Shown in pieces: positions 4,985-44,095 of a DNA stretch of 64,000 nucleotides; positions within the stretch are counted from its first letter, which is position 1, and every line of letters starts with the position of its first letter. The translations under genes were made by a program, and so were the position numbers. Origin of the DNA: an uncultured Alphaproteobacteria bacterium (GTDB taxonomy: Bacteria; Pseudomonadota; Alphaproteobacteria; RF32; CAG-239); assembly GCA_944391415.1 (NCBI GenBank), contig CALXTM010000008.1, positions 2,092 through 66,091 of the forward strand, in the 5' to 3' direction. A model generated the notes under the pieces. It did no database searches and was not told the DNA's origin. It worked only from the letters and a program-made list of their open reading frames with translations.

Positions 4985-5292
4985 ATCGTTTTTCCTTTTA
5001 TGCTGATAATAACATAAAAATATAATTTTATCTATTATTTTTTTCATTAACTCGTTCGGAAACCATGCGTTAAGCATCACCAATTAAAAGCGCCCTTTTT
5101 TAAAGGGTGTTTTTTTGTATTGAAAAGTAAAGTTTTTTTTGGGAAAAATAAAAAATTCAATTCTGTTAAAAAGTTTTGAATATTTTGTTTGAAGGCAAAT
5201 TATTTTATGATAAAAATAACTTGACTTAGAGCTTACTCTAAAAATTATAATATCAAACAGAATCGAAAATTGATAAGGGAGTTGTTGCGTAT

Positions 5293-6432
5293 ATGTTGTC
5301 TTGGAGTGTGATGGCATCAATGGTAGGTTGCACCATAACCATGTATTTGTTTATAAGATATGTGTTGATGTCATCCTTAAGCTGGCCTATTGCCATAATC
5401 TTGTTATTTGTTTTGCTCTTGATTGGTTGCGTGCAGCCGTTAAGCAGCTATGGCTTTGAAAGCCTATTGGGCAAATACTACCCCTTATATCGCTACATAA
5501 TCTATTTCTTATTTGTCGGTTGCGTAATTTTGGCCGGGCTTACTTTGGTTTGCGACAGTTTATGGTTTGTTGCCTACAAAACAGGGCTTATCAACTGCTC
5601 TTCTTTTAGCCCAAGTATTTGTGTCAAAGTTAATTGGTGTTTGATTATCGCCGCTTTGATGCTAAGTTTATATGCCCTATATGAGGGAACAAAAGTACCA
5701 AATGTCAAAGAGCTTGATATTTATTCCGATAAAATTACCGCGGATAAAAAAATTGTGGTATTAAGCGATATACATATTCATCGGGTCATATCCTCAAACA
5801 AAGTGAAAAAAATTGTAGAACGAACCAATCTGCTCAAACCTGACATAATTATTCTGGCAGGCGATGTCGTGGATGATAATATCAACAAAATTGGCAATGT
5901 TGTTGATTTGCTGGGCGGGCTTAAAGCCAAAGACGGTGTTTATTTTGTAAGCGGCAATCACGAATTTTATGCCGGATATCGCGATAGTTTGGTTGCCCTG
6001 AAAAAGCTTGGTTTCAAACAAATCGAAAACTCCGGTGTCGATTTGGGTGATATCTCACTGGCAGGAATTCCCGATTGGCGGACGGCACAACGCATCGGCC
6101 TTTTGATAAGGCTTGATGCAGCCTTTGCCAAGGCGAAACCCAATCAATTTAAGATTTTGGCATCGCATACTCCGGTTAGCTTTGGCAAGGAAAATAATTT
6201 TGATTTGCAAGTGGCAGGACATACTCACGGCGGGCAAATTTTTCCGTTTCATATCTTATCTGCATGGCATAATAAATATCTCTCAGGATTATATGACATC
6301 GAAAATAATGCGAAAATTTATGTATCTCGCGGAGCCGGACAGTGGGGGCCGCAAATGCGCCTGTTGGCACCTTCTGAGATTACTTTGATTAACCTTAAAC
6401 CAGAAAAAAAGGAGAATAAAAATGAGTTTTAA
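5293..6432 (+). CDS. Membrane-anchored calcineurin-like metallophosphoesterase (YkuE/YaeI type)
   Basis: N-terminal TM helices; DIHIH, GDVVD, GNHE, SHTP, GHTHGGQ. Confidence 0.92.
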   Translation: MLSWSVMASMVGCTITMYLFIRYVLMSSLSWPIAIILLFVLLLIGCVQPLSSYGFESLLGKYYPLYRYIIYFLFVGCVILAGLTLVCDSLWFVAYKTGLINCSSFSPSICVKVNWCLIIAALMLSLYALYEGTKVPNVKELDIYSDKITADKKIVVLSDIHIHRVISSNKVKKIVERTNLLKPDIIILAGDVVDDNINKIGNVVDLLGGLKAKDGVYFVSGNHEFYAGYRDSLVALKKLGFKQIENSGVDLGDISLAGIPDWRTAQRIGLLIRLDAAFAKAKPNQFKILASHTPVSFGKENNFDLQVAGHTHGGQIFPFHILSAWHNKYLSGLYDIENNAKIYVSRGAGQWGPQMRLLAPSEITLINLKPEKKENKNEF

Positions 6433-7585
6433 TTTCTATGTACCGGTTAATGTGTTTTTTGGGCGTGGCGAATTGGACAAACTCTCCGAGCGTAACTTGC
6501 CTGGCAAAAAAGCCTTGGTGGTTATCTCCAACGGCAAATCGGCAAGAGCCAACGGCTATCTTGACCGCTTGCTCGGTCAACTAAAAAAAGCCAATATCGA
6601 CTATGCAATATTTGATAAAGTTGAACCAAATCCACTAAAATCGACAGTTATGGCCGGAGCCAAAACGGCCAAAGAAAACGCTTGCGACTTTGTGGTTGCG
6701 CTTGGCGGCGGAAGCGTGATGGATGCGGCCAAGGCAATTGCCGGCATGGCCACCAACGATGGCGATTTGTGGGAATATATGCCCTGGGGTACCGGCAAGG
6801 CCAAAGCACTCAAGAACAAGGCCCTGTCATTGGTTTGTATCTCCACCACGGCCGGAACCGGATCGGAAATTGACAACGGTGCCGTAATTACTAACCCTGA
6901 AACAAATGAAAAAACCGCTTATTTCGGCGAGTTCCCATATCTGTCGATTGTTGATGCCGATTTGATGGCAAGTGTTCCGCCAAGACAAACCGCTTATCAG
7001 GGGTTTGATGCTCTCTTCCACTCAACCGAGGCCTATATCGCCACCACTGCTAATTTGATGAGTGATATGTTTGCCAGAGCGGCAATTGAGAATGTTGGCA
7101 AATACTTGGCCAGAGCCGTTAAAAATGGCCAGGATATGGAGGCAAGAGAGGGTATGGCTTTTGCCAACTCGATGTCGGGATATGTGATGTGTGTGGGCTC
7201 TTGCACCAGCGAGCACTCGTTGGAGCATGCGTTGTCGGCCTATCATCAGGAACTGCCGCACGGCGCCGGATTGATTATGATTTCTAAAGCCTATTATACC
7301 CACATGATTAAATCAGGCGTTAGAAAAGAGCGTTTTGTTGATATGGCAAAATTTTTGGGCCTTAATGATGCCAAAGAGCCAATGGATTTTATCAAAGCTT
7401 TGGATAAATTGCAGCATGAGTGCGGAGTTGACAACCTTAAGATGTCTGACTACGGCATCAGTGAAGATGAGTTTGCAACTATGGCCCAAAATGCCAAAGA
7501 ATGCATGAGCTTGTTGTTTGAATTTGATCCTGTCAAACTATCTTTGCAAGATTGTCAAAACATATATCAGGCATCTTATAAATAA
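6422..7585 (+). CDS. Iron-containing alcohol dehydrogenase
   Basis: EPNP, GGGSVMDAAK, TTAGTGSE, DALFHSTE, HSLEH, PHGAG. Confidence 0.94.
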   Translation: MSFNFYVPVNVFFGRGELDKLSERNLPGKKALVVISNGKSARANGYLDRLLGQLKKANIDYAIFDKVEPNPLKSTVMAGAKTAKENACDFVVALGGGSVMDAAKAIAGMATNDGDLWEYMPWGTGKAKALKNKALSLVCISTTAGTGSEIDNGAVITNPETNEKTAYFGEFPYLSIVDADLMASVPPRQTAYQGFDALFHSTEAYIATTANLMSDMFARAAIENVGKYLARAVKNGQDMEAREGMAFANSMSGYVMCVGSCTSEHSLEHALSAYHQELPHGAGLIMISKAYYTHMIKSGVRKERFVDMAKFLGLNDAKEPMDFIKALDKLQHECGVDNLKMSDYGISEDEFATMAQNAKECMSLLFEFDPVKLSLQDCQNIYQASYK

Positions 7586-24940: not shown

Positions 24941-26028
24941 CTCCTAACTTGTCGGCTAAAGCAGCTGACAAAAATAAATCTATATCGCCGTCCAAAACTG
25001 CCTTGGTATCTGAGGTCTCAACCTCAGTACGCAAATCTTTTACCATTTTGTATGGTTGCAAAACATATGAGCGAATCTGGTATCCCCAACCATTATCACC
25101 TTGATTGTCTCGCTGCTCCGAGGCTTTGGCCTCACGCTTTTTTATTTCAAGCTCATATAATTTTGCTTTGAGCATTTTCCAGGCGGCTTCTCGGTTTTGG
25201 AATTGAGAACGCTGATTTTGACACTGAACGACTATACCGGTTGGCAAGTGTGTAATTCGCACCGCGGAATCGGTTTTGTTAATGTGTTGTCCACCAGCAC
25301 CCGAGGCACGATATGTATCAACGCGACAGTCGGCCTCATTAATATTAATTTCGATACTGTCATCAATGACCGGATAAACTCCGACAGAGGCAAAACTTGT
25401 ATGTCTTCTGGCGTTGCTGTCAAAAGGCGAAATTCTAACCAACCGATGAACTCCGCTTTCGGATTTAAGCCAGCCATATGCATTGCGGCCTGATATCCTT
25501 AATGTGGCGGATTTAATCCCGGCAACATCACCTTCGGTTTCCTCAATATATTCAACCTTATAATGATGCGCCTCTGCCCAACGAGAATACATCCTTACCA
25601 ACATTTCTGCCCAATCTTGCGCTTCCGTGCCGCCAGAGCCTGAGTGTACCTCAACAAAAGCATCGTTGCCGTCTGCCTCGCCGGACAATAATGCCTCCAG
25701 CTCACAATGTTTGACTTTGCTTTGAAGCTCTTTTAGCTGTTCATATATATAATCCAGCTCTTTGTCTTGATCCTCAATCTCGGCAAGCTCCCGCAAATCA
25801 TCAAAATTATGCTTCATTTCATTGAAATTGTTCAGATTGAACTCAAGCGTATTTTTTTCCGTCATCAACTTTTGAGCCTTGGCCGGAGATGACCAAAGAT
25901 TGGCATCCGAGGTTAAACTTTCTAACTCTGACAAACGCAATAGCGCATTGTCATAGTCAAAGAGACCTCCTCAGCAATGCTAAAGATTGCTCAATGTTTT
26001 GGCTGATTTCATAGATGTCTGCTCGCAT
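24927..26028 (-). CDS. prfB: Peptide chain release factor 2, programmed +1 frameshift
   Basis: SPF and GGQ motifs; upstream frame MRADIYEISQNIEQSLALLRRSL from ATG at 26028 joins the main ORF at CTT-TGA-C. Confidence 0.97.
25956..25971 (-). promoter_or_regulatory. prfB frameshift signal
   Basis: Minus strand AGGAGG-TCT-CTT-TGA-C: internal SD plus slippery stop site. Confidence 0.95.
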
Positions 26029-26043
26029 ATCGGTCTTATCTCC

Positions 26044-28521
26044 TTAATACTCGCTTCCGAATTGTATTTCATCGTCGCTGTTTTGCTCATAACTTATCTG
26101 CGGGGCTACATCATCGGTCGCATTTTCGGTTGAGGTTGTTTTTTCATCCTCGCCTATCACCTTTTGCTGCATGGCGCGTTTGGCTGCCTCGGGTTTAAGC
26201 GCTTCCCAAATAACACTTGTATCATTCGGAGTGGCCGGTTTGCCGGTGTCATGATTAATACGAACAAGCTTAATACCGCTTGGAATACGGAAAGGAACAT
26301 CGGCCTGGGTGTCAAGAGCATCTTTCATAAAACTATAGAAAATCGGCAAAGCGGCTGCCGCACCTGTTTCATAGCGGCCAAGAGAACGAGGATTATCAAA
26401 CCCGACATAAACCCCAACAACCAAATCAGGCGAAAATCCCACAAACCAAGCATCCTGATTCTTGTTGGTGGTTCCGGTCTTGCCGGCCAAATGTTTGCCC
26501 AGCGAACGCAATTTGCCGCCGGTGCCATATTGTACGACACCTTCCAAAATACTTACCATCTGATATGCACTGAGAGGGTCCAAAACTTGTTCTCTTACAT
26601 CTTGAAGCTCCGGTACTGGCTGATCTTCCCATTTATCAACCGAACAGCCATTGCATTCACGTCCGTCATGGCGATAGATAGTGGCACCGTTGCGGTCTTG
26701 AATACGCTCAATTAAATAAGGAGTTATCTTTTTGCCGCCGTTTACAAACATCCCGTAGGCCGAGGCCATGTTGATAAGTTTGGTCTCGCCGGCTCCAAGC
26801 GACATCGACAACAACTCGGGCAAATTATCATTAACGCCCATTTTTTTGGCATATTCGGCGACCTTGTCCATGCCGACTTCTTGTGCCAGACGAACAGTCA
26901 TTAAGTTGCGTGATTTTTCAATTCCCTGACGCAAAGTCATCAGACCATAAAACTTCTTGGAATAATTAACCGGCTTCCATACCGGCTGGCCCTTACCCTG
27001 GTCGAGCACAAACGGAGCATCCAAAATAAGATCCGTCGGTTCATAGCCGTTTTCAAGCGCTGCTATGTAAACAATCGGCTTAAAGGCTGAACCGGTTTGA
27101 CGTTTGGCCTGGGTTGCTCTGTTATATTGTGATTTTTGGAAAGAATAGCCGCCAACCATGGCTAAAATTTTGCCAGTGTGCGGATCAAGAGCTATCAAGG
27201 CTCCCTCGACATTTGGAATCTGCCGCAAATAATAGCTATTGGCCGAAAGTTTGTGTTTTGAAGCATCTTGCTCGGAAAGTTTCTCAACCAAAATTACATC
27301 GCCTTGTTTAAGAACATCAGAGACTTTTTGCGGTTGACCACCAACTGATTGATTGCGCAAATTTTTGCGAGCCCAGGAAAGAACACTAAGCGGAATCTCG
27401 CCTTTGGCACCCGACTGGGTCTCGATATCGGCTTTAGCTGATGATATATTCGAAACTATGGCTATCTCCCAGCTGTCTTTGGCCCCGCCAGGCTTTTTTA
27501 CAGCACGAAATTTTTCCTGCCAACCTTCATCCAGCGTAATTGTTTGCAAAGCCTGACGCCAGCCATGTCGACGATCATAATTTTCCAGTTCTGCACTAAA
27601 GGCTTTGGTAGCAATTTCCTGAAGACGCGGATTAAGCGTGGTGCGGATTAGAAGCCCGCCCTCATAGAGTGCATCCTCGCCGAATTCTTTATTGACCTGG
27701 CGTCTGACATCTTCACTAAAATATTGCGCATATTTTACCAACTCTCCGCGACCCGATATTACCTCAAGCGGCTGCGATCTTGCTTCAAGTGCCTCGTCTT
27801 CGGTAATATAGCCTTCCTCACACATGCGATCGATAACCCAATTGCGGCGTGATACTGCCGCGTCATATTTGGTCTTGGGATTATAATTATTTGGCCCCTT
27901 GGGAAGTGCTGCCAAATATGCCGCCTCGGCAATGCTTAACTCATCCAGCGATTTGCCAAAATAATTCATGGCCGCGGCCGCAACACCATATGAGCGATTG
28001 CCCAGATAGATTTCGTTTAGATACAGCTCCAAAATATGCTCTTTGCTAAAAGCTTGCTCCATTTTGATTGCCAACAAAGCCTCTTTAATCTTACGTTTGT
28101 AGGATAATTCTGACGACAGCAGAAAATTTTTGGCTACCTGTTGGGTAATGGTTGATGCCCCTGACGGACGTTTGCCACTGCCAAAATGCTTAATATTGGT
28201 TAATACTGCTCGGATAATACCTATAAAGTCGACCCCAAAATGATGATAAAAATTTTTGTCTTCGGCCGAAATAAAGGCCTGTTTAACCAAATCAGGAATT
28301 TTATTTTCCGGAACAAACAATCTTTTTTCGGCGGCATATTCCATCATTACCTGACCATCACCCGCATATAATCTGGTTGTAACGGCAGGTTCATATTTTT
28401 CAAGTTGCCTATATTCCGGCAACTCTTGAGATATTTGCCAAACCGATGTGATAATTACGATAAGAGCTATCACCGCAAAGAAAAAGCAAGTGCTGAGAAA
28501 TGATGACAGAGTTTTTAGCAT
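26044..28521 (-). CDS. mrcA: Penicillin-binding protein 1A
   Basis: AEDKNFY, GASTITQQVAKN, SAFK, SRN, KTGT. Confidence 0.95.
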   Translation of the reverse strand: MLKTLSSFLSTCFFFAVIALIVIITSVWQISQELPEYRQLEKYEPAVTTRLYAGDGQVMMEYAAEKRLFVPENKIPDLVKQAFISAEDKNFYHHFGVDFIGIIRAVLTNIKHFGSGKRPSGASTITQQVAKNFLLSSELSYKRKIKEALLAIKMEQAFSKEHILELYLNEIYLGNRSYGVAAAAMNYFGKSLDELSIAEAAYLAALPKGPNNYNPKTKYDAAVSRRNWVIDRMCEEGYITEDEALEARSQPLEVISGRGELVKYAQYFSEDVRRQVNKEFGEDALYEGGLLIRTTLNPRLQEIATKAFSAELENYDRRHGWRQALQTITLDEGWQEKFRAVKKPGGAKDSWEIAIVSNISSAKADIETQSGAKGEIPLSVLSWARKNLRNQSVGGQPQKVSDVLKQGDVILVEKLSEQDASKHKLSANSYYLRQIPNVEGALIALDPHTGKILAMVGGYSFQKSQYNRATQAKRQTGSAFKPIVYIAALENGYEPTDLILDAPFVLDQGKGQPVWKPVNYSKKFYGLMTLRQGIEKSRNLMTVRLAQEVGMDKVAEYAKKMGVNDNLPELLSMSLGAGETKLINMASAYGMFVNGGKKITPYLIERIQDRNGATIYRHDGRECNGCSVDKWEDQPVPELQDVREQVLDPLSAYQMVSILEGVVQYGTGGKLRSLGKHLAGKTGTTNKNQDAWFVGFSPDLVVGVYVGFDNPRSLGRYETGAAAALPIFYSFMKDALDTQADVPFRIPSGIKLVRINHDTGKPATPNDTSVIWEALKPEAAKRAMQQKVIGEDEKTTSTENATDDVAPQISYEQNSDDEIQFGSEY

Positions 28522-38935: not shown

Positions 38936-39919
38936 ATGGAAAACGACATAAGACAAACGGTATTGAAATATTTTGCCGAGGATAGCATATCGGCCATTAA
39001 CGTGACAGCAAACCGTATTATCGTTACCTTGCAAAACACTCAAGAAGACGTCAAAAAAGCCGATCAGTTAAAAGCCGAATTATTGAAATTTGACGGCATC
39101 AACAAGGTAAACATCATCTTTACCGCCGCCAAAAGCGCATCGCCGCTACAAGAAGGGCCAAAAAAATGGCAAGTCAACGGGGTTAAAAGAATAATTGCCG
39201 TGGCCTCGGGCAAAGGCGGGGTCGGCAAATCCACCACTGCGGTTAATCTGGCATTGGCGTTGAGCAAGCTGGGCAAAAAGGTGGCAATATTTGATGCCGA
39301 TATTTACGGACCGTCACTGCCGACTATGCTCGGATACGAAAATCAGCCGGCAGTATCTTTTGACGGCAAAACATTTGAGGCGTTTGAGGCGTTTGGTCTA
39401 AAGTCGATGTCCATCGGCTCGATGATTGATCGCGATACGCCGATAATTTGGCGCGGCGCAAAGGCCTGCGGCGCAATTGAACAGCTATTGGAAGAGACCA
39501 ACTGGGGCGAAATTGATGTTATGGTGCTTGATATGCCGCCAGGCACCGGCGATATTCAAATCAGCATATCCCAACAGCTTAAACTTGACGGTGCCGTCAT
39601 TGTATCTACCCCGCAAGATATTGCTTTGATTGATGCGGTTAAAGGGGTTAATATGTTTAGAAAAGTTGATGTGCCGGTGTTGGGGATTGTGGAAAATATG
39701 AGCTATTATATCTGCCCCAAATGCGGCAACCGCGACGAGATTTTCGGCCATGCCGGGGCCAAAGAAACCGCCGAGCGCTTGGGAGTAAGATTCTTGGGCG
39801 AAATTCCGCTTAACTTTGCTATCCGTACTCACTCTGACGACGGCGAGCCGATTGTTGAGGCCGAGCCGGAGAGTGTTTATGCCAAAGCATATTTGGAAAT
39901 TGCTAAAAAAATAGCTTAA
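38936..39919 (+). CDS. mrp: Mrp/ApbC Fe-S cluster carrier ATPase
   Basis: ASGKGGVGKST, DADIYGPS, DMPPGTGD, ENMSYYICPKCG. Confidence 0.95.
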   Translation: MENDIRQTVLKYFAEDSISAINVTANRIIVTLQNTQEDVKKADQLKAELLKFDGINKVNIIFTAAKSASPLQEGPKKWQVNGVKRIIAVASGKGGVGKSTTAVNLALALSKLGKKVAIFDADIYGPSLPTMLGYENQPAVSFDGKTFEAFEAFGLKSMSIGSMIDRDTPIIWRGAKACGAIEQLLEETNWGEIDVMVLDMPPGTGDIQISISQQLKLDGAVIVSTPQDIALIDAVKGVNMFRKVDVPVLGIVENMSYYICPKCGNRDEIFGHAGAKETAERLGVRFLGEIPLNFAIRTHSDDGEPIVEAEPESVYAKAYLEIAKKIA

Positions 39920-39936
39920 AAAGCTATTTCCTTAAA

Positions 39937-40018
39937 AATGGGGAGTGCGTGATATAAGCATGCTTTGCATGACGAATAAACGCGACTGTCTACATGCAGT
40001 TTGTGAGCTCCCCGCCTT
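39937..40018 (+). ncRNA. Structured RNA, copy 1 (C4/CI antisense-like)
   Basis: GGGGAG/CTCCCC closing stem; GCGT/ACGC stem with GATATAAG/ACGAATAA internal loop and CATGC/GCATG cap; ACTGT-CTACAT-GCAGT hairpin; near-identical to copy 2. Confidence 0.7.
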
Positions 40019-40091
40019 ATAAATTACATTCTGACGGAGCAATGATGGCTTCGTTTTTTTTGGCAAAATTTAGCGGCGATTAAAATAAAAC

Positions 40092-40119
40092 TTGCATTTT
40101 TTACTGATTTAGCTAATAT
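40092..40119 (+). promoter_or_regulatory. Putative sigma70 promoter for the RNA copy 2/XRE transcript
   Basis: TTGCAT-N16-TAATAT. Confidence 0.5.
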
Positions 40120-40185
40120 GAGTTTGCTTGAGGCGAGTTGCCTCGAGTGGTGTTTCACAACACCGTCCTACAGACTAGTTCCCTG

Positions 40186-40265
40186 AATGGGGAGCTGTCG
40201 ATATAAGCATGCTTGCATGACGAATAAGACAGGCTGTCTGTAGGCAGTTGTGAACTCCCCGCCTT
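40186..40265 (+). ncRNA. Structured RNA, copy 2 (C4/CI antisense-like)
   Basis: Same fold as copy 1 with compensatory CTGTC/GACAG stem; GTCTGTAGG and GTTGTGAA are complementary to upstream CCTACAGAC and TTCACAAC. Confidence 0.75.
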
Positions 40266-40293
40266 GTTTTTAAAACAAAGGCGGTTGTTTTTT
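40259..40293 (+). terminator. Attenuator-like terminator upstream of the XRE gene
   Basis: CCGCCTTGTTTT-T-AAAACAAAGGCGG followed by TTGTTTTTT, 26 nt before the ATG. Confidence 0.75.
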
Positions 40294-40319
40294 AGCAACG
40301 AACCCAAAGGAGAGCCTCC

Positions 40320-40805
40320 ATGCCAAATACCGCCAAACCTAACAAACCGGCCAAATCACGCTTAACCTCGCGCGGCAAAAATCCCAACGGTCTGCCCAAC
40401 CCGGTTGATATTCATATCGGTAACCGCATCAGGCTCAAACGCCAGGCTTTGGGATGGTCGCAAGATTATTTGTCAAAGATGCTAGGCATTACCTTTCAAC
40501 AAGTGCAAAAATATGAAAAAGGACAAAACCGTATCTCCGGCAGCAGGTTGTATGATTTTGCCGTTTTGTTTGGGGTGGATGTCAACTTTTTCTATCAGGA
40601 TATGCCGCAAAATGTTGCCAAGCAAAGCCCGCGCTATTTTTCGACCACCGCCGCACCAACCGGAAACGAAAATATGGTCAGTGGCAAGTTTGACGAGCTA
40701 AAAAGCGAACGCGCGCTCAAACTCTTGCGTACTTTCTTAAAAATTAACAACAAAAAAATCGCCGATAAACTGTTTGAATTTTTGGTGGCGCTTTCTCATT
40801 CGTAA
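40320..40805 (+). CDS. XRE-family HTH transcriptional regulator
   Basis: PNPVDIHIGNRIRLKR, GITFQQVQKYEKGQNRISGSRL (conserved alphaproteobacterial HTH_3 type); SD AAGGAG. Confidence 0.93.
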   Translation: MPNTAKPNKPAKSRLTSRGKNPNGLPNPVDIHIGNRIRLKRQALGWSQDYLSKMLGITFQQVQKYEKGQNRISGSRLYDFAVLFGVDVNFFYQDMPQNVAKQSPRYFSTTAAPTGNENMVSGKFDELKSERALKLLRTFLKINNKKIADKLFEFLVALSHS

Positions 40806-40835
40806 TATGATTTGAACAAAACCAATCGACTTGCT

Positions 40836-42482
40836 CTATTCTTGAGCAAATTTTTTGACATCACTTGGGTAATTGACATCAAAAAACTTTTTCTTATCTT
40901 TGATTTCAACGGTCTTGATATAGTCTGAATGTTCAACAAATATTGTTCTTACTTGTGAGTTCTCCGGCACTATATCGGCATAATCATAAAGCGATTTGCT
41001 CCACAAAACCGGGTTGCTCTTAATACCGTAGTTACTCATCATACAAATTTGTTTGTCAACCTTGGTATCAAAAACATTTATCAATTTATTCAAATCTGCG
41101 GCTTTGATATTTGGCATGTCTGCCGGCAGCAAAATTGCCCCGTCACAAGACGACGGTATTGACCTAAGCCCTAAAGAAATCGATGTCTTGATGCCCGAGG
41201 TATATGACGGATTATATAAAACATTGATATCATATTTATCAAGCCATTCTTCCATCTCTTCATGTCGATAGCCGGTAATGACAAAAACAGGCCTTGCATC
41301 CGACGCCACAGCCGCTTTTACGGCATGCATAAACAACGGCTCTCCGTTTTTGTCCTCAATCATAAGTTTGTTGGCTCCGGCACGACGTCCCTGCCCGGCT
41401 GCCAGAATAACTATACCAACACTGGCTTTTGCACCATCTGATGATTTGGCTGTCGATCTGATTAGTTTGTTTTGCTTGTTGGCGGCAAGCTTTGAACCAT
41501 ATGCCAACCAAGCCGGACGTTTGTGTGTAAAATCGGCCTCGGTCAACTGCGATGTAAATAATGCATGTTTAATCAGGCTATCTATTGCTACCGTATCAAC
41601 TCGGCCATACGAGTGCGGCAAAACAATTATGGTCGTATTGCCTTTTTTGCCAATCAGCAAGTCAGACGCTCCGACCTGAGGATAAAAATAATTAAAAATT
41701 TTATCAGATACGATCTTGAGACTGGCTGCCAACACATTATTGCTGCCAGATGAGCACAACGGGCTTATCACAAAAACAACATCTGCTCCTGATTTGCACG
41801 CGTCAAATAAAGATTCTGCTAAAATATTCTTTTCATATTGACTGTTAATCTCGTGGGCAAACTTTAGCCCCATACCTTCAAAATTGGTGACAAGTTTCAT
41901 TACCACCGAGGTAAAATCCATATTCTCGCTTTCATCGCGGATGAGATTGGTGTAGACCAAACTAACCTGGCGCTCCTTGATGGTGCCTATCTTCATCAAA
42001 CAAACATTGCCAGACAGCCGAAACAGCATATCGTTTATTTCATCTTCGTGCAATAAGGTGGGAGTTACTTCCAATTCGGCTATAATATCGCCTGATTTGA
42101 CAACCGTATAAGGAGATATCGTATTTAAAATAAAATGCTCATTGAAGCCATTGAATTTATCAAGCCGGTTTTCGTCGGCAATATAAATGCCGTCAAAAAT
42201 TGCAACTACCTTGCAAAGACCATCGTCATCAACAAAATAACCCAACCCTTCGCCACAAATTTTGGCGGCAACCTGAGTTAATGCCGTCCGATAGTCAATA
42301 TCTCCTTCTTCAAAAACAACACCGAAAACTTTATTGATATTATATTTTTTTAAGATATCAATATCCTCTGCCGTCAGAGCGTGTCCTTTGACATAATATT
42401 TTTCATCTAATGAAACATTGCGGCAAAGTCTTACGCCGATGGCCTGATTGGTGTTGAATTCTCCGTATTGCATATATCCCAA
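40836..42482 (-). CDS. Molybdopterin-binding domain fused to a MocA/MobA-like nucleotidyltransferase
   Basis: C-terminal ILAAGQGRR.G.NKL, YNPSY.SG..TS, ADMP, NPVLW, DVN; divergent MoeA-like N-terminus. Confidence 0.8.
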   Translation of the reverse strand: MGYMQYGEFNTNQAIGVRLCRNVSLDEKYYVKGHALTAEDIDILKKYNINKVFGVVFEEGDIDYRTALTQVAAKICGEGLGYFVDDDGLCKVVAIFDGIYIADENRLDKFNGFNEHFILNTISPYTVVKSGDIIAELEVTPTLLHEDEINDMLFRLSGNVCLMKIGTIKERQVSLVYTNLIRDESENMDFTSVVMKLVTNFEGMGLKFAHEINSQYEKNILAESLFDACKSGADVVFVISPLCSSGSNNVLAASLKIVSDKIFNYFYPQVGASDLLIGKKGNTTIIVLPHSYGRVDTVAIDSLIKHALFTSQLTEADFTHKRPAWLAYGSKLAANKQNKLIRSTAKSSDGAKASVGIVILAAGQGRRAGANKLMIEDKNGEPLFMHAVKAAVASDARPVFVITGYRHEEMEEWLDKYDINVLYNPSYTSGIKTSISLGLRSIPSSCDGAILLPADMPNIKAADLNKLINVFDTKVDKQICMMSNYGIKSNPVLWSKSLYDYADIVPENSQVRTIFVEHSDYIKTVEIKDKKKFFDVNYPSDVKKFAQE

Positions 42483-42490
42483 ACCCTACC

Positions 42491-44095
42491 TTACTTCAAA
42501 TAATTCAAAAGCGACAGATTCATTGCGCTACTCAAAACCTGGTATGAGGCTTCCAATGAATTTTGCGCAGCCAACAATTTTACCGTGGCTTCGGTTTTAT
42601 CAACATTTTTGACAGAATACACACTGTTTTCCAATGTGGTCTGATTAAGCTCTAAGGTTTCGTTGACGTTGTTTAGCGTAACATAATTGGCCGATATTTT
42701 GGCTATTACCAAAGACAAAGTCTCGTTTGTGCCATTGGTGGCTTGACCATTGTTGTCAATGGCTGACTGCAACATATCCATCGCCGAGTTTACCAATTGA
42801 TTAACCTCGTCGGCGTTGGTCACGTTGCCGTCTGCATCGGTTTGTATCAAATTGCCTTGGGCAATCTGGCCAAAGGCTATAAACAGTTTGTTAAATACAC
42901 TGTCATTGGCGCTGATATCCATCGTGATGCTCTGATTTTCAGATACACGGAAAGTCTCTGTTGCCGACCTGCCAACATAATAACTATTAGAGCTCATGCT
43001 CCACTTAGCATCGGCATCAACAGTTATCGGCAAATTGTCAAAATAACTGGGATCGGCGCGAACAATCAAATCACCATTGTTTTGAATGCCTATCACTTGC
43101 ATGGTGGGGGCTACATTGGCCGAACCGGAAAAATCGACCACCGTACCAATAGCAAACGAGGTACTGAGCGAAACTGCTTTGCCATTGGCACCAACGCCAT
43201 TGGTGTAAGCGGCATCGGCTGCCACCGGCGTGGTGTCAGAAAATGTAATCGTCTTGCCATCGGTTGAAACCGATTCAACAATATAGGCCGTGGTATTGCC
43301 ATCTTCATCGGTAAAGACCATCGTATCACCGGCACCAATCGTATTAAACGCTCCCCTGATAGATGCTTTTAATGTGTTATCGGTTGCCGAAAATGTCAAA
43401 TCACCCGTGGTCGATGCACCACCCGTAACCGCATTGTTCAAAAAGCCGTTGGTCGAAGATAATATAAACTGATTGTCTGCCGTGGCATCTTGCGTAAAAG
43501 TTAAATCCCCGCTACCTGCCGCATTGGCTACACGACTTGATAAATTGGCATTAAAAGTTGACGGATATTGAATGTTAATTCCATCGTAATAGCTTTGAAA
43601 ATCAGCCAAAGAGGAAAATTTGAACTGGGTCGGCGCAGATGAGGAGCCTGCTCCAAAAATATATTTGCCGGCAACCGAAGTATTAAGGGCGTCTGCCAAC
43701 AGCGACATACCAGAGAAAGCTATGGTTTGCAACTCAGAAATCGAGGCAGAGACCTCAGATGTCACGGCCTCGCCGTTTTTTAGGTCGGTTAACGCTGAAA
43801 GCGCATTATTAAGCTGGCTTTTAAATGAACTGACCGAATCTTCAACACTCTCCATAACCGTGCTCATCGCCTCAATCGTAGTGTTGAGAATAACATTATT
43901 GTTTGTAAAATTTTGGTTCACCGCCATCGAAGCTTCCAAGTTAACAATATTGGAGGCACTCATGCCATAACCGCCATAATTGGCATATTTAATGCCGGTG
44001 GTGGCTTGATAGCTGTACATATCAACCATGGACTTGGTATTCATGGTGCTGCTTAATAAATTCATATAACTTGCATAAGTAGGAACTCTTACCAT
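42491..44095 (-). CDS. flgL: Flagellar hook-associated protein 3 (FlgL-like)
   Basis: Flagellin-like termini (ALNTSVAGKYIFG; VDKTEATVKL...LEASYQV...LSLLNYLK); downstream of flgK. Confidence 0.85.
   Translation of the reverse strand: MVRVPTYASYMNLLSSTMNTKSMVDMYSYQATTGIKYANYGGYGMSASNIVNLEASMAVNQNFTNNNVILNTTIEAMSTVMESVEDSVSSFKSQLNNALSALTDLKNGEAVTSEVSASISELQTIAFSGMSLLADALNTSVAGKYIFGAGSSSAPTQFKFSSLADFQSYYDGINIQYPSTFNANLSSRVANAAGSGDLTFTQDATADNQFILSSTNGFLNNAVTGGASTTGDLTFSATDNTLKASIRGAFNTIGAGDTMVFTDEDGNTTAYIVESVSTDGKTITFSDTTPVAADAAYTNGVGANGKAVSLSTSFAIGTVVDFSGSANVAPTMQVIGIQNNGDLIVRADPSYFDNLPITVDADAKWSMSSNSYYVGRSATETFRVSENQSITMDISANDSVFNKLFIAFGQIAQGNLIQTDADGNVTNADEVNQLVNSAMDMLQSAIDNNGQATNGTNETLSLVIAKISANYVTLNNVNETLELNQTTLENSVYSVKNVDKTEATVKLLAAQNSLEASYQVLSSAMNLSLLNYLK

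Follow-up and report, generated by a model that had tools for sequence, protein, structure and literature searches.

The window (the whole 64-kb stretch of alphaproteobacterial DNA analysed here) carries a gene for an XRE-family regulator, and directly ahead of this gene lies a short region in which two sequence boxes recur as their own reverse complements. What RNA does this region encode, and how would it act on the gene behind it? The original prediction took it for a C4/CI-like antisense RNA attenuator, a single phage-immunity switch repurposed for a host-type regulator. We found instead that the locus is one unit of a dispersed, multi-copy family of predicted leader RNAs, most of which stand ahead of genes for 72-80-aa HTH proteins, and not a one-off repurposing. 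Our preferred reading, to which we give a probability of about 55%, is a terminator-limited leader RNA in which a private box/loop pairing would choose between two folds, each copy regulating its own gene. The features of the locus, all on the plus strand, are as follows.

39939-40014, plus strand: copy A, a second and leaderless core copy with loop CUACAU and junction UUGUGAG (model R1, 101.3 bits)
40033-40062, plus strand: terminator of copy A (terminator scan and fold)
40092-40119, plus strand: promoter-like TTGCAT (40092-40097), 16 nt spacer and TAATAT (40114-40119), read from the sequence, with a start predicted near 40126
40126-40148, plus strand: H1, the 5' hairpin of the leader, 9 pairs with loop GAGUU (MFE)
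40149-40164, plus strand: H2 hairpin GGTGTT-TCAC-AACACC, carrier of box 1 (sequence)
40154-40161, plus strand: box 1, TTCACAAC, inside the H2 loop and predicted to pair with junction J4/1
40167-40175, plus strand: box 2, CCTACAGAC, just 3' of H2 and complementary to the P4 loop region
40177-40183, plus strand: anti-P1 segment AGTTCCC, forming an alternative hairpin with the 5' strand of helix P1 (MFE)
40188-40261, plus strand: RNA core of ~80 nt (fold, covariation and model R1, 90.3 bits)
40188-94 with 40255-61, plus strand: helix P1 of the core (predicted fold and covariation)
40195-99 with 40228-32, plus strand: helix P2 of the core (predicted fold and covariation)
40207-21, plus strand: P3 hairpin of the core (predicted fold and covariation)
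40233-48, plus strand: P4 hairpin of the core, loop UGUA (predicted fold)
40249-54, plus strand: junction J4/1 of the core (predicted fold)
40236-40244, plus strand: antisense segment GTCTGTAGG, exact reverse complement of box 2 (CCTACAGAC)
40247-40254, plus strand: antisense segment GTTGTGAA, exact reverse complement of box 1 (TTCACAAC)
40259-40293, plus strand: intrinsic terminator, arms at ~40259-70 and 40272-84, T-run at 40285-40293 (predicted fold)
40320-40805, plus strand: gene for an XRE-family HTH regulator of 161 aa (ORF; HTH_3 match, E 1.9e-13)

The four boxes and segments lie exactly where the original prediction had put them, GTCTGTAGG and GTTGTGAA following each other in an order antiparallel to that of the two boxes, and the hairpin with box 1 was confirmed at 40149-40164. 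The sigma70-like promoter that had been claimed can be read as TTGCAT-N16-TAATAT; a loose form of the pattern occurs in 111 of 117 units, the -10 box ending 60-69 nt upstream of the core in 99 of the 111, though a consensus promoter scan missed the promoter of the window unit. The ~80-nt multi-stem RNA is predicted to fold as described (core folding z -2.6 to -3.1). At its 3' end stands the terminator, whose first bases are common to helix P1, and then comes the XRE gene, again as described, with a Shine-Dalgarno sequence GGAG at 40309-12. Between the end of the T-run at 40293 and the ATG at 40320 (~25 nt) a promoter of the gene's own would not fit. A hairpin GGAG...CTCC before the window ATG, considered as a means of sequestering the Shine-Dalgarno sequence, is not kept in orthologous units. 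Searches of NCBIfam and PHROGs with the XRE protein returned generic HTH or repressor matches only. The neighbouring genes (an HtrA-type protease, SPFH proteins, an Mrp/NUBPL ATPase, a MobA-like protein and FlgK) are housekeeping genes and not phage genes, so the remark that no phage genes lie nearby was correct.

The box/loop pairing was assessed in the family as a whole. We collected 118 units, of which one was short of upstream sequence and five fell outside the parser; the 112 parsed gave 104 distinct units from 16 genomes. Because the registers of box and loop shift by 1-2 nt between units, an alignment-free test was chosen, in which each RNA was compared with its own leader and with the leaders of other units. 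The duplex energy was -17.8 kcal/mol with the own leader versus -11.4 kcal/mol with other leaders (z = -30, 104 distinct units), and the own-leader value was reached by 0 of 10,000 permutations. The own leader was the best among all 104 leaders for 54 units and within the top 5 for 87; within genomes it was the best partner in 80 of 91 units. For box 2, the median contiguous match was 7 nt in own leaders and 4 nt in other leaders. Boxes and loops vary between copies while their complementarity is kept, and 97 distinct loop+junction combinations were counted among the 104 units. Loop-target covariation in homologues, on which the original prediction had staked its case, thus held in more than 100 units. 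A match to the own RNA was absent from the leaders of three units (L040, L092 and L097), and two copies had no leader at all. Judged from these comparisons, the box-to-loop complementarity is not due to chance; it is copy-specific, with paired sequences that are hardly ever shared by two copies. At the level of base complementarity, box 1 is shown to pair with the 3' junction of the core and box 2 with the P4 loop.

The core of the RNA was found in five copies in the own genome by model R1, relatives yielded as many as 27 and 30 matches in a single genome, and the family is present in 120 of the 151 genomes of the order that were searched. A terminator arm and T-run follow the core in 105 of 118 units, and an HTH ORF is next downstream in 91 of 118. 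For the 73-aa HTH protein there was no PHROG match and a single weak NCBIfam match. Orthologues of the 161-aa XRE protein in four further genomes likewise have the RNA upstream. Across Alphaproteobacteria, however, the RNA was found upstream in only 4 of 80 XRE loci surveyed, and it is therefore not a general companion of the 161-aa XRE family. Four named plasmids carry distant XRE homologues; they gave no R1 match upstream of these genes (the best match anywhere in the loci had 11.2 bits), and blastn of the window unit against plasmids in general found no match.

The closest described system is Brt/Trp of Bartonella. Brt was described as a structured RNA with a terminal stem-loop just ahead of a promoterless XRE (trp) gene (Tu et al. 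2016, PMC5387305), its RNAs of 194-203 nt were confirmed by northern blot (PMC5387305, section 3), and the same paper, which puts forward a riboswitch hypothesis, presents Brt/trp as restricted to Bartonella. Deletion of the brt1 3' stem-loop gave more trp1 transcription (PMC8070961), and synthesis of the regulator only by read-through past the terminator has been reported for this system. The units found here share with Brt/Trp an RNA with a 3' stem-loop directly upstream of an XRE/HTH gene, the layout of the 91 units counted above, and the copy numbers per genome are alike: Bartonella genomes have 0 to 34, with 9 in B. henselae Houston-1 and 0 in B. bacilliformis (PMC5387305, Table 1), and the genomes studied here have 0 to about 30. 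Unlike Brt, most copies here precede a different, shorter HTH family of 72-80 aa without BLASTP similarity, and they end in a classical U-tract terminator, with a predicted transcript of ~170 nt versus 194-203 nt. In the available text of PMC5387305, internal box/loop pairing of Brt was not found.

A link to Bartonella was also seen at the protein level. The window XRE protein shares 44% identity over 75 aa (E 2e-24) with the product of an HTH gene on the B. grahamii plasmid pBGR3, a similarity that the 73-aa HTH paralogues do not show, and directly upstream of the pBGR3 gene there is a weak match to model R1 (16.4 bits, E 0.03). From its position, its size and the published count of one plasmid copy, this pBGR3 element is a candidate Brt. 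Inspected by eye, the region repeats the architecture of the window unit: a box in the H2 loop, a further box, an anti-P1 palindrome and a core. The plasmid holds a second RNA relative, which scores 49.5 bits with sRNA-Xcc1 and by eye has the same leader boxes.

In Rfam, the whole 64-kb window gave two tRNAs only at gathering thresholds. The nearest model is sRNA-Xcc1 (RF02221), which gave the window core 22.7 bits and thus less than its gathering score (53); copies in the own genome scored 20.8-27.3 bits with it and class-level relatives found by R1 28-41.6 bits. It is the only Rfam model aligned full length to every copy, model positions 1-87 being aligned in all five own copies with the same helices, and it shares the AUAYAA...GAAUAA internal-loop motifs. 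A paper title describes sRNA-Xcc1 as an integron-borne trans-acting sRNA, and the available passages of its literature make no mention of self-complementary leader boxes.

With such a spread, the unit might be thought a selfish or mobile cassette of promoter, RNA and small HTH gene, spreading by duplication, its RNA and protein acting as an addiction-like pair and not as a host regulator. Copy number does range from 0 to 30 among close species, many copies are located at contig ends, C9 and C15 are truncated remnants, pBGR3 has two relatives, and titles and passages of the literature place sRNA-Xcc1 relatives on integrons, plasmids and phages. However, a toxin-like partner was not found, no transposase or att-like ends were seen beside the four own-genome units, and the 161-aa XRE unit occupies a conserved housekeeping neighbourhood in several species. 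We regard this explanation as highly improbable.

The leader and the core can be folded in two ways. In what we call the open fold, the H2 hairpin and the core helices are formed. The 22 core pairs are all paired in the five own-genome copies (105 of 105 cells); 8 of the 22 are changed on both sides, with compensatory changes in helices P1, P2 and P3, and the covariation score was reached by 0 of 500 shuffles. Folding predicts H2 as a local hairpin for 84 of 92 units, and at one position of its stem both strands have changed between the types GGAGU/ACUCC and GGUGU/ACAUC. These substitutions indicate that the predicted helices of the open fold are under selection. The anti-P1 motif follows the type of the helix P1 5' strand across units, and the same was judged by eye in distant relatives. 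The stem of H1, also judged by eye from a listing, changes in sequence across units and keeps its pairing.

The full transcript has the closed fold as its MFE (-60 to -70 kcal/mol); when the leader is constrained to stay unpaired, the value is -37 to -43 kcal/mol, a difference of ~25-30 kcal/mol in favour of the closed fold. It breaks helix P1 and H2 or leaves bulges in them, and in the full-length ensemble helix P1 is predicted at ~0 pairs. Judged from this ensemble, few molecules may adopt the open fold as long as the leader is present and free. The ~170-nt RNA could be imagined as one rod-like or kissing structure folded purely within itself, with the box/loop pairs a mere part of it; it would then serve either as a constitutive attenuator that waits for a signal, in line with the proposal of a riboswitch or thermometer for Brt, or as an independent sRNA directed at other targets. 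The greater stability of the closed fold agrees with this, and covariation is blind to whether pairing is within or between molecules. Helix P2 also varies freely, with compensation, and variability alone is no proof of an address role. A full-length species is what the Brt northern blots (PMC5387305) and an RNA-library contig of 155 nt point to. We consider a purely intramolecular fold unlikely all the same. Helix P1 and H2 are disrupted in the closed fold yet show compensatory changes; anti-P1 and the 3' strand of helix P1 both follow the P1 5' strand, and therefore two exclusive pairings are conserved. Leaderless copies persist, and apart from the AUAUAAG/GAAUAAG internal loop no conserved core resembling a ligand pocket was identified.

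The contig in question comes from the RNA run, one of three sequencing runs, all available as contigs; the RNA run contained 0.07 of the sampled words. It covers 40137-40291, that is the leader boxes, the core and the terminator, and its ends, being those of a contig, are no evidence of transcript ends. It is a weak hint of a terminator-limited leader RNA. The claim that the pairing causes premature termination found no support in folding, which predicts the terminator for either state of the boxes. Blocking the boxes in silico had little influence on terminator pairing (9.35 versus 9.15 expected pairs over 91 units), and therefore no clear antiterminator emerges from thermodynamic folding. 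An antiterminator in which the arms of H1/H2 pair with a terminator arm was inconsistent between units by eye and was dropped.

Phage RNAs of the C4 and CI type offer the model on which the original prediction was built. The C4 precursor is processed by RNase P to a species of ~77 nt. In satellite phage P4, which is found in prophage, the CI RNA is cut from its own leader, pairs with upstream sequence of the same transcript and controls transcription termination; a downstream site, seqC, is used as well. In the annotated record of phage P1, a leader hairpin carries a1 in its loop, with b1 following 7 nt after, and the two match the 3' junction of c4 and the loop of its second hairpin. The C4 families (RF01695, RF03163, clan CL00128) and the RNA studied here have in common an outer stem around two hairpins and a 6-7-nt 3' junction, which is complementary to a1 or box 1 as the second-hairpin loop is to b1 or box 2, in the same order. 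Unlike C4, the outer stem here has 7 bp and not 17 bp, an internal loop interrupts a long first arm, the terminator directly follows the core, and a downstream RBS covered by an a2/b2 pair is absent. The gene downstream is an XRE regulator and not icd/ant, with no antirepressor operon, and the setting is chromosomal and housekeeping, not that of phage or prophage immunity. A search of the literature for the role of phage P1 a1/b1 gave nothing useful.

The Rfam models C4, c4-2, c4-a1b1 and isrK had no match at E<=10 in 39700-40900, and C4 had none at E<=10 in three paralogue loci nor at E<=1 in seven relatives; phage P1 c4, as a positive control, scored 68.8 bits with Rfam C4 (RF01695, gathering score 45 bits). 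The idea of a C4-like attenuator thus stands for the architecture, which is that of phage P1 c4 with a1/b1, and fails for a match to the Rfam C4 family. The absence of a second downstream target pair, noted at the outset for this locus, was confirmed over 101 units: when own and other regions were compared for an a2/b2-type target, the loop gave z = 0.6-1.9 and the junction z ~4, the latter with a 0.3-nt difference.

In a strict version of the phage model, the ~80-nt core would be excised from its leader transcript (by RNase P, for instance) and would pair in trans with boxes 1 and 2 on nascent transcripts, enforcing early termination as a phage-immunity-type negative feedback on the XRE gene. 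Its topology is identical to that of phage P1 c4 with a1/b1, and the segments that complement each other coincide exactly with what the two partners expose when open (H2 loop, post-H2 strand, P4 loop and junction). Leaderless intact copies with their own terminator are kept here and in two relatives, and the GCC after helix P1 presumably resembles the RCC tail of RNase P substrates. Cross-pairing within a genome is slightly weaker than with the leaders of other genomes (-14.4 versus -15.2 kcal/mol, 51 of 79 units), a small effect in units that are not independent. Set against this, an a2/b2-type downstream target was not found, the Rfam C4 model was without a match, and no terminator lies between boxes and core to give early termination. 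The sole transcript evidence, the 155-nt contig, spans leader plus core, and Brt RNAs measured 194-203 nt on northern blots (PMC5387305). The strict model seems to us rather doubtful.

The terminator-limited leader RNA with two folds, our preferred reading, would work in the following manner. The unit, with a predicted leader RNA of ~170 nt, would run from the promoter through H1, H2 with box 1, box 2, anti-P1 and the ~80-nt core, of c4/sRNA-Xcc1-like shape, to the terminator and the XRE-type gene. Most transcripts would end at the terminator and the regulator would be made only by read-through, as in Bartonella Brt/Trp. In the closed fold, the leader would lie on the core with the 5' strand of helix P1 held by anti-P1; in the open fold, H2 and the c4-like core would form and leave boxes and loops exposed. 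The balance of the folds would be set by the private box/loop pairing and would in turn set read-through or maturation, and because this pairing is private, each copy would regulate only its own gene. The scheme is compatible with pairing inside a single molecule as well as with pairing of a completed RNA to a leader still being transcribed, and likewise with a rise or a fall in expression.

The family extends beyond a single genus and is common across an order of small-genome Alphaproteobacteria, in 120 of the 151 genomes searched. Its leader-plus-core architecture would link three RNA families that are filed separately, C4 with a1/b1, sRNA-Xcc1 and Brt. Tentatively, and with less confidence than we place in the preferred reading, we suggest that the c4/a1b1 module may be a general bacterial device for self-leader recognition by a two-part kissing address, and that Brt/Trp, sRNA-Xcc1 and C4/IsrK may form one superfamily. 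If so, gut Alphaproteobacteria with genomes of 1.3-1.9 Mb would carry up to ~30 mutually orthogonal copies and would together provide a natural library with 97 or more distinct addresses and one private RNA feedback loop per small XRE regulator, and the "ligand" long sought for the Brt "riboswitch" would be the RNA itself. For Brt/Trp, a family that influences an adhesin and biofilm in Bartonella, a concrete and testable pairing scheme is offered. The ~100 natural box/loop pairs, most of which are predicted not to cross-pair, would be material for the study of how RNA-RNA specificity evolves and parts for orthogonal RNA regulators.

Copy A, which lies upstream of the window unit, was absent from the earlier note, as was the multi-copy nature of the family. 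For copy A, the own genome gave no leader-type target site with both boxes, the sole match being the complementary strand of copy A itself. The tandem layout of copy A and the window unit (copy B) is also present in L010 and L126.

The attenuator-like unit is strongly supported as a real feature of the window. On checking the sequence, we found all elements listed in the original prediction at their stated coordinates; the list below adds the predicted start and H1.

Elements of the window unit
40092-97 and 40114-19, promoter-like TTGCAT and TAATAT with a 16-nt spacer
near 40126, predicted transcription start
40126-48, H1, the 5' hairpin, whose stem varies with pairing retained
40149-64, H2, hairpin GGTGTT-TCAC-AACACC, carrying box 1
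40154-61, box 1, TTCACAAC, within the H2 hairpin
40167-75, box 2, CCTACAGAC
40236-44, antisense segment GTCTGTAGG of the core, a multi-stem RNA of about 80 nt
40247-54, antisense segment GTTGTGAA of the same core
T-run ending at 40293, terminator hairpin and T-run
40320-40805, XRE open reading frame (ORF) of 161 aa (HTH_3 match, E 1.9e-13)

In this unit, GTCTGTAGG and GTTGTGAA are exact reverse complements of both boxes, in antiparallel order. Folded alone, the core is predicted to form an outer stem P1 around both a long arm, made up of P2 and P3, and the second hairpin, P4, with a 6-nt single-stranded junction 3' of P4. A further core (copy A, 39939-40014), overlooked in the original prediction, lies 250 nt upstream with its own terminator and without a leader; no leader matching its loop and junction was found in its own genome. 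The tandem order of leaderless copy, full unit and XRE gene is retained in two relatives (L010 and L126). The region of copy A (39939-40062) directly follows an mrp/NUBPL-type gene, and the copies kept at its position in L010_89 and L126 have a different loop, with promoter and H1 present and boxes absent.

BLAST of the region revealed three further complete units and one truncated remnant in the same 1.44-Mb genome; each complete unit is composed of promoter, 5' hairpin, boxes, core and terminator, then a 73-aa HTH gene. Across five cores, 105 of 105 cells of the 22 proposed pairs were standard pairs, eight pairs were altered on both sides, and the covariation score was reached by none of 500 shuffles. 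R1, a covariance model built from the core, matched strongly at five places in the own genome and had matches in 32 of 61 related genomes (maximum 27 per genome). Within the order, 120 of 151 genomes, from 19 of 20 genera, had matches, with a maximum of at least 30 per genome; 30 candidates per genome were scored, and 30 is possibly a ceiling. Because the RNA forms a family, the question of chance is settled: the window RNA is a member of a multi-copy family.

Degraded copies were seen in the window's own genome (G000). The remnant on contig C9 (about 940-1194) has its promoter and H1 joined directly to the interior of a small HTH gene, with boxes, core and terminator all deleted. On contig C15 (about 5130-5190), a fragment like the 5' half of the core (GGGGAG...ATATAAGCATGCTTTGC) sits between alaS and the full C15 unit, close to the latter; it resembles a tandem copy that has decayed, reminiscent of the window layout. 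The C20 unit is immediately preceded, on the same strand, by a 263-aa DNA methyltransferase-like ORF (5916-6707, DPPY motif by eye), and no nuclease gene was seen adjoining this ORF.

We collected 118 units from 23 genomes; one unit was left out for too little upstream sequence. A loose promoter pattern was present in 111 of 117 units, the −10 box ending 60-69 nt before the core in 99 of these. H2 was predicted in 84 of 92 units, with stem types GGAGU/ACUCC, GGUGU/ACAUC and others, between which one position is altered on both sides. Box 1 lies in or across the H2 loop, and box 2 begins no more than a few bases later. Just 5' of the core, a segment named anti-P1 is complementary to the P1 5' strand: CUCC or UCCC accompanies GGGGAG, UCCUC accompanies GGAGGAG, and in distant relatives UCCCGG or CGGUC accompanies CCGGGAG or GACCGG (partly by eye). 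Of 118 units, 105 have a terminator arm with a T-run, and in 91 an HTH ORF begins about 50 nt past the core; by a crude rule, no ORF was called in 18, and nine had another ORF, five of them class-level relatives. In class-level relatives (L032, L034, L035, L037 and L038) the ORF after the RNA is lipoprotein-like or otherwise of a non-HTH type, and the association with HTH genes is therefore not universal. The XRE family is itself widespread in Alphaproteobacteria without the RNA, which was upstream in only 4 of 80 XRE-family loci and absent from those on four named plasmids.

Four class-level relatives and L047 fell outside the parser, and the 112 parsed units gave 104 distinct ones. The predicted duplex of P4 plus junction with the 62-nt leader was −17.8 kcal/mol for own versus −11.4 for other leaders (z = −30), a value approached by none of 10,000 permutations. 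Median contiguous Watson-Crick matches were 7 versus 4 nt for loop and box 2, and 8 versus 5 nt for junction and box 1. The own leader was the single best partner of 104 for 54 units, among the top five for 87, and within genomes the best in 80 of 91. Loop-target covariation in homologues, which the original prediction had named as a check, is therefore present across these units, which carry 75 distinct loops, 38 junctions and 97 combinations. Three exceptions (L040, L092 and L097), whose boxes mismatch their own RNA, are possibly recombinants between paralogues and offer potential natural tests of pairing between molecules. Two leaderless copies (copy A and L096_451) are exceptions as well.

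Folding of the full predicted transcript gave a closed form (−60 to −70 kcal/mol), in which the leader pairs with the core's 3' half, namely the 3' side of P4, the junction and some of the P1 3' strand, and the P1 5' strand is bound by anti-P1. A c4-like open form was obtained when the leader was constrained to remain unpaired (−37 to −43 kcal/mol). Compensatory variation was found for open-form pairings (P1, P2, P3 and H2) and for closed-form pairings (box/loop and anti-P1/P1), and because both sets carry it we read the RNA as probably bistable. The terminator was predicted in both forms (9.35 vs 9.15 expected pairs, 91 units), its base two pairs longer in the closed one, and therefore folding energies reveal no clear antiterminator in these units. 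Control of the gene would follow from the box/loop pairing.

This pairing may act between molecules or within one. Precisely the segments that open folds leave exposed are the complementary ones, and leaderless copies are conserved, as pairing between molecules would have it; within-genome cross-pairing is also slightly weaker than that with leaders of other genomes (−14.4 vs −15.2 kcal/mol; 51 of 79 units, same-address units removed), a small effect among non-independent units. Pairing within one molecule is favoured by the large stability advantage of the closed fold and by the only transcript hints, which are full-length. One metatranscriptome run gave a single 155-nt contig (40137-40291), from leader boxes through terminator, and none of its contigs lies on the XRE gene. 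Both a discrete full-length leader RNA and efficient termination would fit this, though contigs cannot show ends or levels and RNA libraries can contain DNA. We give most weight to a private, fold-switching attenuator.

The proposed analogy with C4 RNA held for structure and not for family membership. The Rfam models C4, c4-a1b1, c4-2 and isrK, suggested in the original prediction, had no match at E<=10 in the window locus, although on phage P1 as positive control C4 scored 68.8 bits and c4-a1b1 51 bits. In the annotated P1 record, a1 (TTGACAG) lies in the leader-hairpin loop and matches the c4 3' junction, the same logic as box 1, while b1 (GTTAGTGC), 7 nt past that hairpin, matches the c4 second-hairpin loop, a counterpart of box 2 and the P4 loop. 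In P1 a further pair, a2/b2, covers the icd ribosome site; this family has none, confirming that a second downstream target pair is missing.

The sRNA-Xcc1 model was the only Rfam model aligned full-length to all copies, with 21-27 bits for the own copies and at most 41.6 for class-level relatives, against a gathering score of 53. An RNA on Bartonella grahamii pBGR3 (25880-26100, minus strand) reached 49.5 bits; it has a promoter, an H2-type hairpin and both leader boxes (by eye), and lies upstream of a 222-aa protein of phage family phrog_5070 (function unknown) instead of an HTH gene. In Xylella, C4, isrK and sRNA-Xcc1 annotations adjoin in one array (PMC12189769, Table 4), which is consistent with one superfamily and no proof of it.

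The closest described system is Brt/Trp of Bartonella. As given in passages of PMC5387305, Brt RNAs are 194-203 nt, number from none to 34 per genome, and each lies 10-18 nt upstream of a poorly transcribed XRE gene (108-152 aa); the authors termed them genus-specific and proposed a riboswitch. A later review reports that deletion of the brt1 3' stem-loop raises trp1 transcription (PMC8070961). The window XRE protein shares 44% identity over 75 aa with that of the pBGR3 HTH gene, directly upstream of which we found an R1 match (16.4 bits) with the same H2-loop box, a second box, anti-P1 palindrome and core visible. Judging from position, size and the single plasmid copy counted in the paper, this element is a putative Brt. 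PMC5387305, from 2016, makes no mention of Rfam, Xcc1, kissing or pseudoknot, and its wording on complementarity and antisense RNA concerns a knock-down construct and the possibility that Brt copies overlap in their roles. Rather than a one-off repurposing of a phage switch, as first proposed, the window unit belongs to a large Brt-like family.

The neighbours of the window unit encode an HtrA-type protease, two SPFH proteins, an Mrp/NUBPL ATPase, a MobA-like protein and FlgK, and among them the earlier remark of no phage genes nearby was borne out. On the minus strand, a 548-aa ORF (40836-42482) matches Pfam only in its C-terminal third (MobA-like NTP transferase) and is unassigned over roughly its first 350 residues. 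Also on the minus strand, a 534-aa ORF (42491-44095) without a Pfam match at E<=1e-5 adjoins flgK, a position which suggests a hook-associated FlgL-like protein.
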